Assembly: GCA_963845565.1 (NCBI GenBank)
Contig: CAWJSJ010000002.1
Coordinates: 2,336,001 to 2,400,000 of the forward strand
Direction of reading: 5' to 3'
DNA: 64,000 bases
DNA from: an uncultured Methylomirabilota bacterium
GTDB taxonomy: Bacteria; Methylomirabilota; Methylomirabilia; Methylomirabilales; 2-02-FULL-66-22
Part shown: one piece after another, positions 49,011 to 57,937 of the stretch
How positions within the stretch are numbered: the first letter of the stretch is position 1
Layout of the letters: every line of letters begins with the position of its first letter
Translations under genes and position numbers: made by a program
Notes under the pieces: generated by a model
What the model was told of the DNA's origin: nothing
Seen by the model: only the letters and a program-made list of their open reading frames with translations
Database searches by the model: none

Positions 49011-49072
49011 GCGTGCGGTGTGCTGAGTTTTATACCTTGCAAATCTAAACAATGCGTTTGATAATGCACGGT

Positions 49073-50301
49073 ATGAAACGAGCCTACGAAGGGCTGCTAC
49101 AGTCGTATCTGGGGATGTTTCCGTGTGTCGCCGTCATCGGTGTCCGGCAATGTGGCAAGACGACATTGCTCCAGACTCTGCCGGAAGGCTGGCAGTATTT
49201 CGACCTGGAGCGGCGGGCGGATCATGAGGTCGTTTCCCGCGACGCGGATGCGTTCTTTCGCCTCCATTCCCGACGGGTAGCGCTGGATGAAGTCCAGTTG
49301 ACACCAGAGGTGTTCTCTGCGCTTCGGGTGGCGATTGACGAACACCGCGCGGAGAAGGGCCGATTCGTCGTCACCGGCTCCAGCTCGCCGGAGCTGTTGC
49401 GGTCGGTCTCGGAGAGTCTGGCGGGCCGGGTCGGGATCATTGAGCTGGCACCGTTGTCCTGGGAGGAGGCGACGCAGACCTGCGGGCGGGACTCGATCTT
49501 GCGCCGATTGCGGGACCGAAAGGCCAAGCCCGCAGACCTGATCGAGGGGTTGAGGGCGCGCGGGGACGTGGCGCGAGCGCACGAGTTCTGGTTCCGGGGT
49601 GGATTCCCCGAGCCGTGGCTGAATCCGGGGACGAATTCCGCGAGCGCTGGGTGGAGCAATACCTCCAGACCTACCTGTACCGGGACGTGAAGCGCTTCTT
49701 TCCGGGGTTGGACGATGTCCGGTTCCGGCGATTTCTGGCCATGCTGGGCGGGCTGTCGGGGCGGGTGTTGAACAATGCCGAAGTGGCGCGGGCGCTCGCC
49801 GTGTCCCAGCCGACGGTACGGGATTACTTCGAGATCGCGCACGGCACCTTTGTTTGGCGGCGCATCCCCGCTTTCACGCAGGACGTGGTGAAGCGGGTGG
49901 TGAAGCACCCCCGGGGATATTTGCGCGACAGCGGCTTGCTGCACGCGCTCCTGCGCATCCCGGACACCGACGCGCTGTTGAGCCACCCCCAGATGGGCGC
50001 CTCGTGGGAGGGGATGGTGGTGGAGGAAATCCTCCGCCAGTTGAATGCGCTGGGCGTGGGGCATGAGTATTCGTACTACCGCACCGGCGGCGGCGCAGAG
50101 GTGGATCTGATACTCGAAGGTGACTTCGGTCGCGTGGCCGTCGAGATCAAGCACGCCTCCACCGTGAACGCGCGCGAACTGCGGGGCCTCGGCGACTTCG
50201 TCAGGGAGCACAAGGCGCGCCTGGGCCTGGTGGTCACCAACGACTGCGCGGCCCGGCAATACGATGAGAAGCTGCTGGGACTGCCGTTCAACTGGTTGTA
50301 A
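49073..50301 (+). CDS. AAA_14-type ATPase with DUF4143 C-terminus (one frameshift in a G run near 49630)
   Basis: GVRQCGKTT, LDEVQ, VTGSS, GGFPE; second frame holds YLRDSGLL, GASWEG, EVDLI, VEIK. Confidence 0.85.
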
Positions 50302-50403
50302 GCCGTTGTCAAAGAATACGTTGAGCGGAGACATTTCGAAACGGCATAAGGAGCCGTAACGAAATAGAAAAAGAGGTATAGGTTATTTCGTAACGGCTCC
50401 TAA
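50299..50403 (+). repeat. Palindromic repeat family B, copy 1
   Basis: TAAGCCGTTGTCAAAGAAT...AAACGGCATAAGGAGCCGTAACGAAAT...ATTTCGTAACGGCTCCTAA; the first TAA is the ATPase stop codon. Confidence 0.92.
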
Positions 50404-50805
50404 GAATCGGGCTCCCAACCCACACGCGCCGCGGGCGCGTTTATTCGGCCTGCGGAGAAATTCGAACAGGATGCTTCGGGATGACCTGAGATCTTCAGGC
50501 CGCGGCCTCGCTAGCTCCGCGCTTGACACCAATGCGCGCTTGGCATAGCCTTTCCATCGACTTGGTCCCGCATCAACCGGTGTCCCGGCTGGGGCGCTGA
50601 ACACTCACGGCCCATCCGGTCTCCGCGTCCGATACGATCGCGCTCTCTGGTATGCATCGAGGTGCTGCCGGGCTTCTCGGAAGCTGGGCTGGTTCTCCCA
50701 TACGGAGGACGAGCGACGCAGCGGCCCTTTCGATCGGGGACCAGGGGTCCTCGCGGAGCGCCCACACCTGACCGGTCGACCGCGGGCGGGACGAAGGAGC
50801 AGACC

Positions 50806-53667: not shown

Positions 53668-53772
53668 TAAGCCGTTGTCAAAGAACAAATTGAGCGGAGA
53701 CATTCCGAAACGGCATAAGGAGCCGTAACGAAATAGAAAGAGATGTCTAGGTTATTTCGTAACGGCTCCTAA
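53668..53772 (+). repeat. Palindromic repeat family B, copy 2
   Basis: Same consensus as copy 1; preceded by an extra right-end fragment ACGGCTCC. Confidence 0.92.
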
Positions 53773-53784
53773 GGCTCGAATGTC

Positions 53785-54312
53785 ATGACACGCGAGCGGG
53801 GTAGCTTCTGGACGTGGGTGGCGAGGCGCTTGGCGACCGCCCGAGACACCCCGATCGTCCTGGACCGGCGCCAAGCGGAGCGCCGACAACAGCTCCAGCC
53901 TCCAGACGAGGAGCGGCGGCTTACGGACCGTCGGCGTCCGGAAAGCAGCGACCTGGGCGAGGTCGGCGGTTTCTTGGAGGCGGGGATTCATCTCCGGGGC
54001 GTCCTGCAGTTCAGCGGCGCACTCCGCGTCGACGGCCATTTCGAGGGGGAGCAGGTTCGCGGCGAGACGCTCGTCATCGGTGAACACGGATTGGTGAACG
54101 CCGAAATCCGGGTTGAGATTCTGCAGGTCAGCGGTCAGGTGCTGGGGGACGTCACTGCGAAGCGGTGGGTTGAACTCCTCGAGTCGAGCACGGTGACCGG
54201 AACTATCCGTACCCCGCGATTGACGATATGGAAGGGGGCCGTCTTCAACGGGACCTGCGACATGCCCGCCGCACATTCCCCGGAGAGCGAAGTTCTCTCA
54301 CGGCCGGCGTGA
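53785..54312 (+). CDS. Bactofilin (polymer-forming cytoskeletal) protein with Arg-rich N-terminal extension
   Basis: GVLQFSGALRVDGHFEG, LVIGEHGLVNAEI, V.G.I..PRLTI.KGAVFNGTCDM. Confidence 0.88.
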   Translation: MTRERGSFWTWVARRLATARDTPIVLDRRQAERRQQLQPPDEERRLTDRRRPESSDLGEVGGFLEAGIHLRGVLQFSGALRVDGHFEGEQVRGETLVIGEHGLVNAEIRVEILQVSGQVLGDVTAKRWVELLESSTVTGTIRTPRLTIWKGAVFNGTCDMPAAHSPESEVLSRPA

Positions 54313-54415
54313 GCCGTTGTCAAAGAATAACTTGACCGGAGAAATCCCGGGAACGGCATAAGGAGCCGTAACGAAATTCCAAAAAGTGGACAAGCTATTT
54401 CGTAACGGCTCCTAA
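54310..54415 (+). repeat. Palindromic repeat family B, copy 3
   Basis: TGAGCCGTTGTCAAAGAAT...ATTTCGTAACGGCTCCTAA; the first TGA is the bactofilin stop codon. Confidence 0.92.
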
Positions 54416-54658
54416 CGACAGGCGACCTCGTGTGGGATGATCAGGTTCGCGGTCATCCCGGCGGGCGTCGGCGGGCGCGCCTGCACGTCTCTGCGTTCAG
54501 CTTCCTCGCTTCGGTCTACGATGAATTGTCCCCTCGCCGATCTTTCCTCGTGAGCACGCTCACTCCGTGCTGCGTATTCCCGTTCATTCCTATTCGGTTA
54601 CACTCCTCGATCTCGCCGGATCGCTAGGAGCCGGGCAGGTCTCTATCCCTTGGCCGGC

Positions 54659-54982
54659 TCAGGCAGCGGGAAGACACCGGGCGAGTGCCTCGGCGGTGAT
54701 GTCGTCGTGCGAGGCGCTCCACACGACCACGCCCCGCCGGAAGACGATGATCTGGGGCGACTCGTGTTCTATGCCTGACCGCGCCGCGATCTGCTGGGAC
54801 ATGGAGCGCTGCGCGCGAACGTCCACGAGATACGCCGGGATCTGTGGGTGCTGAAGGAGGAAAGCTTCGACCTCGCCCAAGGCCGTCACGCACGTAGGTC
54901 AGGTTGGGCTATGCTTGTACAAGAACGCACGCTCCGCGGTGAAGACATTTTCCAGTTCGCGCTCTTCGCTAATGCGCCGCAT
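54659..54982 (-). CDS. YtxJ/BrxC (DUF2847) thioredoxin-fold redoxin, candidate selenoprotein (in-frame TGA at 54899-54901)
   Basis: GGAGAGGGG SD; LYKHSPT-(TGA)-PTC continues in frame to IEHESPQIIVF and WSASHDDIT; 107 aa with readthrough. Confidence 0.8.
54868..54885 (-). promoter_or_regulatory. Putative bacterial SECIS hairpin
   Basis: CGGCCUU-GGGC-GAGGUCG stem-loop; G-led apical loop 20 nt after the UGA. Confidence 0.55.
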
Positions 54983-55533
54983 GATCCCCTCTCCGACATT
55001 GGCCGCGATGGATGTGCTGGTCCGATTTCGGCCTGTGTATTTATCATTCTTTGGGCGAAGTTTCAATCTGTGGAGGCGGCGCGACCTCACGCGCTCACCT
55101 CTTTTCCACAGATGTCCGACCCTGGCCGCTGAGCCACTGTTTGCTGCCCGCCATTACCTGCGCATAGGACCTCCCATCGAGTCCTGCGGTGGAAAAAGTT
55201 CCTGGCAAACTTTACACCGCCCCGGACCACGGATTTCCCGCGAACCACGTGGCTTTTCCGCTTTGACGACCCATAACCTTTTGCGTTTATGGCTCTCTGC
55301 TTATCGCTCCAGGTGACGATCTCAAATGGCACCGTAATTGCCCTGTATGAATCACGACGAAGAAGGGGGTTAGTCAATCCTGACCCCCGGTCGGCCCCAC
55401 CGGGCCCGCAGTCCTGGCCCTGACACGACACAGCGTGAAGGGGAGGGATCGGAGATGCGGGGAGGGCTCCTGGAGAAGGAGTCTCAGGGGCACTGTAACC
55501 CGGATCGTCATCCGGCAAGAAAGGAGGAGCATC

Positions 55534-55779
55534 ATGAAGTACGGTATCGCAATCACGCACCTGATCTTGGTGCTCACCGTGAGTGGCAGCCTGGCCTTCG
55601 CCGCGACGGAGGTTCCTCGGGTGCCGCCGAAAGGCACGGAGGGCCCGGACGTGCGCGCCAGGGTAGAGCCGAAGGGCCAGGAGGGGCCCGATGTCCGACG
55701 CATCCGTGAAACTGATTGCCACGGCGTGGAAGGGCCGGACGTTCGCCACAATGCCAGCGCCTCTTGTTTCACGCTGTAA
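55534..55779 (+). CDS. Small putatively secreted protein with three GxEGPDVR repeats
   Basis: AGGAGGAG SD, signal peptide ending in AFA, three EGPDVR repeats, two Cys. Confidence 0.75.
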   Translation: MKYGIAITHLILVLTVSGSLAFAATEVPRVPPKGTEGPDVRARVEPKGQEGPDVRRIRETDCHGVEGPDVRHNASASCFTL

Positions 55780-55881
55780 GCCGTTGTCAACGAATTAGTT
55801 GAGCGGAGACATTCCGAAACGGCATAAGGAGCCGTAACGAAATAGAAAGAGATGTCTAGGTTATTTCGTAACGGCTCCTAA
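55777..55881 (+). repeat. Palindromic repeat family B, copy 4
   Basis: Near-identical to copy 2; the first TAA is the stop codon of the repeat peptide. Confidence 0.92.
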
Positions 55882-56193
55882 GGGGCACCCTGCATAGTGG
55901 ATCCCACTGCTGACCGACCGGCCGGGGAGGCGCGGTAACCTCGTCATGACGCGACCGCCTCCCCGGCCTAGCCTCACGCCCAGTCCCCGGTTTCGCGCCC
56001 CAGCCGGTCCAGTGCTCTCTAATCGCGTACGGAGCAGGATGCCCTGGTGAGGGGCCCTGCGCATCTTGCGACTCCCGCTTCTCAAGTGGCTCTGTCGGGC
56101 GCCCCTCGCCGCCGGCTCGTATCAACCGCACAACCATCCGGTGGGGGGACGGTGTTTCCGGATGTTTCGAGATCTTTCCCCACAGGTTTTCTC

Positions 56194-56316: not shown

Positions 56317-57666
56317 ATGATCTCACCGAAGCTCCTCAAGCGCCACGCGGCCGGCAACCCGATCAAGGTCGGCTGGGTGGGGGCCGGCCGCATGATCACC
56401 GGGGCGATCTGCCAGACGGCGCTCATGAAAGGGATGCGCAACGCCGTGATCTGTGACATCCGCCCGGAGGTCGCTATCCGGGCGTATGAGATCAACGGCG
56501 TGAAGAAGCAGGACATCGTGTTCTCGGAACAGCTGGGCCCGATCAACGACGCGCTGCGGGCCGGGAAGCCGGTGATCACCCAGGACAGCCACCTGATGCC
56601 CGCCCTGGAGGTGGACTGCGTGGTGGAGGGGACGGGCGTCCCCGAGGTGGGGGCGAGCGTGGCCTATCGCTGCATCCAGGGCGGGAAGCACATCATCATG
56701 CTGAACGTCGAGGCGGACGTGGTGATCGGCCCGATCCTGCACCAGATGGCGGAGCGGGCCGGCGTGGTCTATTCCGTGTCGAGCGGCGACGAGCCCGGCC
56801 TGATCACCGAGCTGGTGGACCGCTGGGGCGGCCTGGGGTTCGAGATCGTGGCGGTGGGCAAGACGCCGGCCAGCCTGGGGAAGCTGGATCTGTACTGCAC
56901 CCCCGACACGCTCGCCGCCGAGGCCAAGCAGCTCAACGTCAACCCCCACTTCTTGGTGACGTTCCGGGATGCGACCAAGACCGCCATCGAGATGTCCTGC
57001 ATCGCCAACGCCACCGGGCTCATCCCCGACGTGCGGGGAATGCACGGGCCGGTGGCCGGCATCTACGAGATGGCCAATGTCTTCCGACTCAAGGCCGAGG
57101 GCGGCCTCCTCAACAACCGGGGCGTGGTGGACTACGCGCGGCCCCTCAAGAACGCCGACGGCTCCATCGACTACCTGCGCAGCGTGACCCCCGGGGTGTT
57201 CGTCGTCGTCCGGGCCACCCACCCCCAGATCCAGCAGGACCTCGGGTATTTCGACGTCGTGCACACCGGCGAGTACTTCACGTTCCACACCCCCTACCAC
57301 CTGGTCACCAACGAGATCCCGCTGTCCATCGTCTGGGCCGTCGAGGATGGGGAGCCGACGGTGGTGCCGCGGCACGGGTTGCTGGCGGAGGTCCTGGGCG
57401 CCGCCAAGGCCGACCTGAAGGCGGGCACCATCCTGGATGGCGGCGGCGGCTTCACGCTCTACGGGGTGAACGACCTGGCCTGCGTGGCCAAGCGGGAGGG
57501 GTGCGTCCCCTTGGGCCTGCTCGACGGGGCCACGCTGCGCACCGCCGTCAAGAAAGATCAGGTCATCACCCACGACATGGTGCAGCTCCAGACGGAGACG
57601 ATGCTCTACCACCTGCGGCGGATCCAGGACGAGGTGCTGCCGCCGACGGACGTCAGCCGGAGCTGA
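56317..57666 (+). CDS. NAD(P)-dependent oxidoreductase, homoserine-dehydrogenase-like with C-terminal SAF domain
   Basis: AAGGAG SD; VGWVGAGRM Rossmann motif, NVEADVVIGP.L, GDEPG, TKTAIEM..IANATG; SAF-like AKADLKAG..LDG.GG. Confidence 0.85.
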   Translation: MISPKLLKRHAAGNPIKVGWVGAGRMITGAICQTALMKGMRNAVICDIRPEVAIRAYEINGVKKQDIVFSEQLGPINDALRAGKPVITQDSHLMPALEVDCVVEGTGVPEVGASVAYRCIQGGKHIIMLNVEADVVIGPILHQMAERAGVVYSVSSGDEPGLITELVDRWGGLGFEIVAVGKTPASLGKLDLYCTPDTLAAEAKQLNVNPHFLVTFRDATKTAIEMSCIANATGLIPDVRGMHGPVAGIYEMANVFRLKAEGGLLNNRGVVDYARPLKNADGSIDYLRSVTPGVFVVVRATHPQIQQDLGYFDVVHTGEYFTFHTPYHLVTNEIPLSIVWAVEDGEPTVVPRHGLLAEVLGAAKADLKAGTILDGGGGFTLYGVNDLACVAKREGCVPLGLLDGATLRTAVKKDQVITHDMVQLQTETMLYHLRRIQDEVLPPTDVSRS

Positions 57667-57759: not shown

Positions 57760-57865
57760 TAAGCCGTTCTCAAAGAATAACTTGACCGGAGACATTTCGG
57801 GAACGGCATAAGGAGCCGTAACGAAATTACAACAAATGGACAAGTTATTTCGTAACGGCTCCTGA
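57760..57865 (+). repeat. Palindromic repeat family B, copy 5
   Basis: TAAGCCGTTCTCAAAGAATAACTTGACC...ATTTCGTAACGGCTCCTGA; same subtype as copy 3. Confidence 0.92.
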
Positions 57866-57937
57866 GATGCCATGCTCCCCGCGGGGTTTGGTGTTCCGGT
57901 TCCCGCAGAAGCAGGCCTCGAGACGGGTGGAGGTTCT

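Follow-up and report, generated by a model that had tools for sequence, protein, structure and literature searches.

A predicted selenocysteine-containing BrxC (YtxJ) with a U-P-T-C motif in an uncultured Methylomirabilota bacterium

On the minus strand of the window (the whole stretch of 64,000 nt analyzed here) an in-frame TGA interrupts a gene, and the ORF track lists its parts separately as 54899..55090 and 54659..54889; we reproduced this split, described in an earlier note on this DNA, with an ORF tool. The locus raises the question of whether the TGA ends translation or is decoded as selenocysteine (Sec), and, in the latter case, what kind of enzyme the full-length protein would be. If the TGA is taken as Sec, the reading frame extends over 107 codons: 27 codons, the TGA at 54901-54899, then 79 codons. 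The features of the locus are the following:

54659..54982, minus strand: brxC/ytxJ gene, 107 aa with predicted Sec28, terminal TGA stop at 54661-54659
54986..54994, minus strand: Shine-Dalgarno-like GGAGAGGGG, 3 nt ahead of the ATG
54982-54980, minus strand: start ATG, 3 nt downstream of the SD-like GGAGAGGGG
54908..54916, minus strand: K-H-S motif upstream of the active site, nearly invariant in 130 aligned proteins
54899..54901, minus strand: in-frame TGA, predicted selenocysteine 28, at the catalytic Cys position in the motif KHSPT-U-PTC
54890..54892, minus strand: Cys31, predicted resolving cysteine of U-P-T-C
54868..54885, minus strand: SECIS-like hairpin CGGCCUU-GGGC-GAGGUCG, 7 bp, -7.8 kcal/mol
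54878-54875, minus strand: apical loop GGGC of the hairpin, beginning 20 nt past the UGA
54752..54766, minus strand: H-E-S-P-Q motif, residues 73-77, with H73 and P76 invariant in the 130 aligned proteins

An ATG start at 54982 with a Shine-Dalgarno sequence had been proposed, and the SD-like element was found at 54994-54986; homologues with the TGA have purine-rich equivalents ahead of their start. A GTG start at 55090 was rejected: the extension is not coding-like (dicodon score -15.2 versus +4.6 for codons 1-27). The 20 codons 3′ of the UGA score -2.2, which is why our genome-wide dicodon read-through scan missed brxC. A promoter scan at brxC found none. The HESPQ motif claimed for the read-through product is there, as residues 73-77; Pro76 presumably is the site of the cis-proline of thioredoxin folds.

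Several other features of the region deserve mention. A 107-nt repeat containing palindromes lies between genes in five copies within 13 kb (50299-50405, 53668-53774, 54311-54417, 55777-55883 and 57761-57867), with 174 BLAST matches genome-wide (at least 80 nt, at least 80%); we take this repeat to be REP- or MITE-like. An ATPase-like gene at 49052-50301 is seemingly split into overlapping frames, 49052-49690 and 49615-50301, and may represent another indel error. A DRL-type oxidoreductase with SAF domain (PF21135) is encoded at 56317-57666 (plus strand), near brxC here as well as at one further locus (L016); we know of no link between this enzyme and BrxC.

The read-through protein matches the Pfam model PF11009 (BrxC) over residues 4-100 (E 1.5e-27; 95.9 bits, cut-off 24.2) and the YtxJ model TIGR04019 with 93 bits (cut-off 77.25). 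Residue 28 falls in an invariant Cys column of an alignment of the window protein with 129 homologues, which bears out the earlier placement of the TGA at the catalytic Cys position of YtxJ/BrxC. An alignment-based AlphaFold model, with Cys in place of Sec, has pLDDT 94.1; in this model residue 28 stands directly before helix 30-44 and Cys31 lies in the helix's first turn. Model and alignment together give a thioredoxin fold in which the second helix has the redox residue at its N-terminus, with both KHS and HESPQ in place; prediction from the single sequence was uninformative (pLDDT 47). The top fold match of the model in the PDB, 3iv4 (TM 0.87, rmsd 1.4), is also the sole PDB sequence match (E 1.2e-14), and all structural matches ranked below it are thioredoxin-fold proteins. 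The selenoprotein-specific models of NCBIfam gave no match (GRX_bact 13.5 bits, PDO_seleno_TRX 12.3 bits). Monothiol bacilliredoxins have a single redox residue, in CxxS; the window motif is UxxC.

In family (PF11009, TIGR04019), size, fold and catalytic position the window protein is like B. subtilis BrxC (YtxJ), as described in the part of PMC8113031 considered here, and the bacillithiol genes bshA, bshC and BrxA/B of its host match the B. subtilis context. It differs in having predicted Sec where B. subtilis BrxC has its catalytic Cys31, and a second Cys, three residues further on, where the B. subtilis protein has Ser (TCPIS, from the portion of PMC8945050 covered); also, unlike in B. subtilis, brxC of the window lies outside any ytxGH operon and the host genus yielded no Bdr/YpdA. 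The protein of 3iv4 (‘putative oxidoreductase with a thioredoxin fold’) is 32% identical and has a CPIS motif with Cys. Deinococcus AbxC (NF053651) has a BrxC-related N-terminal domain (E 1.2e-11 with the window protein); it has, however, ∼200 aa and a TCHKT motif (same portion of PMC8945050), and the window protein scores 44.8 against its cut-off of 340. The catalogued UxxC families (Trx, Grx, TIGR02187 PDO, SaoT, UXX-star and HUIPC; Table 1 of PMC13188914) share fold class, motif and SECIS geometry with the window protein, but it belongs to a different family, and none of them is listed with a bacillithiol link.

In the genome carrying the window brxC (G000; other G numbers denote further genomes compared) bshA and bshC are adjacent, both above cut-off; the best bshB1 match has 162 bits with a cut-off of 182.5. 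BrxA/B with CGC is present, and TrxR is above cut-off. Across the genus bshC occurs in 19 of 21 genomes, as against seven for BrxC, yet Bdr/YpdA was found in none of the 21, i.e. no bacillithiol disulfide reductase was found in a genus with bshC. The neighbours of brxC include no bacillithiol or selenium genes, and no such neighbourhood is conserved among the matches listed.

According to the part of PMC8113031 considered, B. subtilis BrxC strips bacillithiol from BrxB, Bdr and probably Gap via its single Cys. From this protein and from general dithiol glutaredoxin chemistry we infer a possible course of the reaction. The selenolate of Sec28 would attack the mixed disulfide between a protein and bacillithiol, freeing the protein thiol and taking up bacillithiol; Cys31 would then attack Sec28, so that bacillithiol is released and an internal Se-S bond is formed; this bond would be re-reduced by thioredoxin reductase/thioredoxin or by excess bacillithiol. 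These two recycling routes are proposed in view of the lack of any Bdr/YpdA match in the genus. Given Sec, the enzyme is probably a bacillithiol-linked reductase, and it is just as probable that Cys31 serves as the resolving residue.

One could argue instead that Sec is inserted into a general thioredoxin/glutaredoxin-like reductase with no specificity for bacillithiol, e.g. an electron donor to the Sec peroxiredoxins of this genome or a Se-S reductant; Sec thioredoxins and glutaredoxins have a UxxC motif (Table 1 of PMC13188914), TrxR is present where Bdr/YpdA was not found, BrxC is in far fewer genomes than bshC, and beyond 3iv4 the structural matches are simply thioredoxin-fold proteins. 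Nevertheless, the family motifs KHS, HESPQ and SH are intact, the cut-off of the YtxJ model is passed, and bshA, bshC and BrxA/B are all there; we regard a general reductase as possible but rather unlikely, and a bacillithiol-linked reductase remains the preferred reading of the function.

Conservation bears on whether the codon is translated at all. Five of the seven genus genomes with BrxC have TGA at the catalytic codon, in the active-site motifs UPTC (G000 and G009), UPLC (G012 and G013) and UPVS (G006), and two have TGC (CGVC in G005, CGIS in G020). Cys31 is retained in every TGA homologue examined except that of G006. Among 50 metagenome loci, the nine at 78-99% identity all have TGA and 28 more distant ones have TGY; one was misplaced and 12 were unplaceable. 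In homologues with identity down to 52% the interrupting codon is TGA every time, TAA or TAG never, and it occurs at the catalytic site only. Downstream of the TGA, dN/dS against four TGA homologues is 0.17-0.30 (binomial p 7e-5 to 4e-4); the upstream values, 0.26-0.41, are not significant by themselves (p 0.07-0.21, 22 codons). Thus, a TGA kept in homologues where others have Cys and purifying selection on the downstream part, both of which the earlier note had expected of a Sec codon, were observed. Database entries for TGA forms are fragments of 66-78 aa without the active site; the close NCBI proteins are named Ca. Methylomirabilis sp.

These data bear on the possibility that the TGA is a genuine stop, either a nonsense allele fixed in the clade or the boundary of a 76-aa downstream part translated from GTG 54889. 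Gene callers do annotate brxC as split, selB is out of frame in the G000 assembly, and close relatives have full-length Cys alleles. Still, a stop would hardly be TGA, and at the catalytic codon, in every case; the first 27 codons with start and SD have been retained, the downstream part is under the selection just described, and the downstream fragment would have neither redox residue while GTG 54889 has no SD. We consider a genuine stop very improbable, and Sec insertion the far better reading.

The genome has most of what such insertion requires in intact form. Out of the Sec machinery to which the earlier note pointed, selA (578 bits), selD (with an in-frame TGA of its own) and tRNA-Sec(UCA), the selC product, are intact in G000; selB (L170, about C4:5490-7400), when set against G009, carries three extra single bases within the first 420 nt and is frameshifted as assembled, but in G005, G006 and G009 it reads as a single open frame, and in G013 it is partial. 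The frameshift of selB in G000 is likely an assembly error, since the window itself has 4-5 single-base gaps per 3-4 kb in comparison with near-identical contigs. Among the 21 genus genomes 18 have selA and 13 have tRNA-Sec, and the two Cys-form genomes (G005 and G020) have both; G012, whose brxC has the TGA, yielded neither a selB nor a tRNA-Sec match, though selA and a TGA-type selD are present.

A genome-wide scan of G000 yielded 162 candidate read-through TGAs. Of 20 candidates picked by eye from this set, 17 continue past the TGA into a domain known to Pfam or NCBIfam: PDO, rhodanese, three peroxiredoxins, PrdB-like, two CMD, YeeE, TlpA-like, NifU, HesB, DsbA, UXX-star, C-GCAxxG-C-C, OsmC and ArsM. 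Several of the catalogued UxxC thioredoxin-fold selenoproteins are encoded in this genome too. The NifU case (a NifU/Nfu-domain CxxU protein at G000:C1:455247-455441, L157) is an observation in its own right: in the 21 genus genomes, 13 of 31 PF01106 matches carry one TGA, and a hairpin CACUCC...GGAGUG is conserved in the nine TGA copies examined. NifU is not named in the 2026 selenoprotein review (PMC13188914), and we found no paper linking NifU, selenoprotein and CxxU.

Cysteinylated tRNA-Sec-like tRNA is a conceivable route for Cys insertion at UGA. Such a route, or else reassignment of TGA to Trp or Gly, would give a full-length protein without selenium; however, TGA is the commonest stop in G000, ending 1085 of 2098 long coding-like ORFs, so there is no genome-wide reassignment. 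Furthermore, the only tRNA found with a UCA anticodon is tRNA-Sec, and selA and selD are intact. Reading of the TGA as another residue is therefore quite improbable, more so than a genuine stop, and Sec remains the residue of choice.

The codon itself appears secure. It is covered by four public runs from four studies, one of them RNA, and none has another letter at 54899-54901; TGC or TGT, which the earlier note had considered, was not seen. The RNA run is a metatranscriptome contig spanning 54667-54989, which is compatible with transcription of brxC. An assembly or sequencing error for TGC/TGT, conceivable in an assembly that departs from near-identical contigs by about one single-base indel in every kb, has a negligible chance given these runs, four metagenome contigs 100% identical across brxC, and the TGA in four other species.

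The 7-bp stem with a G-led GGGC loop starting 20 nt after the UGA, described before, was reproduced with -7.8 kcal/mol. The bSECIS model, as given in the Fig. 2 legend of PMC13188914, has a loop of 3-9 nt, a stem of 4-16 bp, G in the first two loop positions, a spacing of 16-37 nt and an MFE at or below -7.5. The hairpin fits this published model (4-nt loop, 7 bp, 20 nt; -7.8 for the stem-loop alone, -10.9 with flanks), as a bacterial SECIS should, with weak covariation: one of eight pairs is altered on both sides, and 71 of 500 shuffles were equally high, a non-significant result. A hairpin of -7.8 or lower at 20 nt is present in 12 of 15 TGA loci (which are not independent and include duplicates); among Cys loci, two of 100 reach -3 at 18-24 nt. 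Random TGA trinucleotides of the genome (n=1500) have a hairpin of -7 or lower at 18-24 nt in 3.8% of cases, and synonymous recodings (n=3000) one of -7.5 or lower at 16-24 nt in 6%; the z-score of the hairpin is -1.29.

Over the hairpin (codons +5 to +11) synonymous sites diverge by 0.059, versus 0.236 elsewhere in brxC, where one other segment equals or exceeds the conservation of the hairpin and several nearly do so. A rare Leu codon, TTG (9% usage), is retained in six of seven compared sequences. The hairpin has a mismatch in L095/L096 and is weaker and shifted in G006. Naked RNA that includes the UGA prefers an alternative fold (pair probability of the hairpin 0.01-0.15); after removal of the UGA and upstream bases the probability is 0.69-0.997. 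The brxC hairpin is of a kind with others in G000: that of selD, with a GGC loop on a stem of 7 bp, is spaced 17 nt from its TGA, and stems of 6-8 bp occur at 17-26 nt in 13 of the 17 other TGA genes. We take the brxC hairpin as modest supporting evidence for a SECIS, not as proof. The hairpin core of G006 brxC (L013), GCCCUC-GGU-GAGG, is also part of the hairpin of the YeeE gene (G000:C2:2494387, L154); this may be chance, as both encode A-L-G-E.

Reads over the codon, the machinery (with the caveat of the frameshifted selB), the conserved TGA and purifying selection all favor the claim of the earlier note that Sec replaces the catalytic Cys. On this comparative evidence we have little doubt that UGA28 is decoded as Sec, which would give a full-length 107-residue BrxC with thioredoxin fold; tRNA-Sec and SelB would decode the codon, guided by the hairpin 20 nt downstream. 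The explanation as a whole, a Sec-BrxC with hairpin-guided decoding, is in our judgment highly likely; the bacilliredoxin chemistry sketched above is a probable but less certain part of it.

A coupled change of CxxS to UxxC had also been suggested; this did not hold. CxxC is present even in the nearest relatives with Cys (CSIC in P0004, P0006 and P0214; CGVC in G005), and G006 has UPVS. Because Cys relatives carry CxxC and G006 carries UxxS, the resolving Cys and the predicted Sec are separate changes. Among the best 150 representatives 129 have CxxS, 13 CxxC and two CxxA; one is another match and five are without a match to the regular expression.

One cluster at 90% identity holds nine full-length entries, all CSIC, and six truncated entries. 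The truncated P0218 differs from P0004, a Cys form, at one of 75 downstream residues (Ser for Ala), and this Ser is the residue found at the stem in the TGA alleles of G012 and G013. The truncated entries thus presumably carry the TGA; judged by these sequences, near-identical Cys and truncated BrxC alleles coexist. The UxxS form of G006 has a set of its own, 11 truncated relatives plus CxxS neighbors. The Cys form P0006 is like the protein of G012 in its N-terminal half and like that of G013 in its C-terminal half, a hint that alleles have recombined. In the TGA-type brxC of G012 (L015, C31) a short stretch following residue 43 is scrambled and there is one additional residue, as would fit compensating indels.

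In the tree the UxxS and UxxC groups form separate supported clades (92/98 and 98/92); a single clade for both was not rejected by the AU test (p 0.155 and p 0.157). A value of p 0.034 came from a run omitting the Cys rows nested in the second clade and was set aside. Tests of the direction of the Sec/Cys change favored neither (p 0.09 and 0.33). Changes from Sec to Cys are termed rare in bacteria in the part of PMC13188914 considered. One could speculate that BrxC is the first selenoenzyme of the bacillithiol network, with Sec gained twice in one genus (CxxC to UxxC and CxxS to UxxS) along with different SECIS hairpins, a natural and recent Sec/Cys switch in which Sec and Cys alleles still alternate between near-identical proteins, and a Se-S form that TrxR could recycle without Bdr; we offer this combination tentatively, as less likely than not.

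Within its own phylum BrxC was found in seven of 251 genomes, all seven within the genus. A GTDB scan gave a catalytic TGA at one of 72 loci (L016, the same DNA as L014), 70 with Cys and one misaligned, with some bias against TGA forms as one of the six patterns used presupposed Cys. No catalytic TGA was present in 212 matches from three other phyla: those of G251 (22 matches in 167 genomes, no stops), G254 (119 matches in 135 genomes, no stops) and G252 (71 matches in 401 genomes, one with a TGA). That match turned out to be a frameshifted copy whose active site has Cys, and was rejected.

The earlier note did not know YtxJ/BrxC as a selenoprotein family, and BrxC is indeed absent from the 119 prokaryotic selenoprotein families of Table 1 in PMC13188914 (2026). 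BrxC/YtxJ has no mention in the main text and the covered part of the supplement of BSepDB, in SelCysML (text and supplements), in the deep-Sep supplements, or in the covered text of the Haft 2022 preprint. A literature search, mostly of titles and abstract openings, found no paper on Sec-containing BrxC, YtxJ or DUF2847; of Haft & Tolstoy 2025 it covered the families taken up in Table 1 of PMC13188914. According to PMC13188914, Deng et al. 2026 assigned 63 predicted selenoprotein genes to a Methylomirabilota MAG and reported unvalidated new candidates. As far as checked, BrxC appears to be a selenoprotein family not yet catalogued, and its TGA form was found in a single genus.

New selenoproteins are most often Sec versions of Cys enzymes with a thioredoxin fold; with BrxC the list of prokaryotic selenoproteins would gain a family, and dozens of database entries, the 66-78 aa BrxC fragments without active site, would stand corrected. 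Selenium would be tied to bacillithiol redox control, a link made by no paper that our literature search found. Finally, one 107-aa enzyme that occurs within one genus in UxxC, UxxS, CxxC and CxxS form would make a small testable system.
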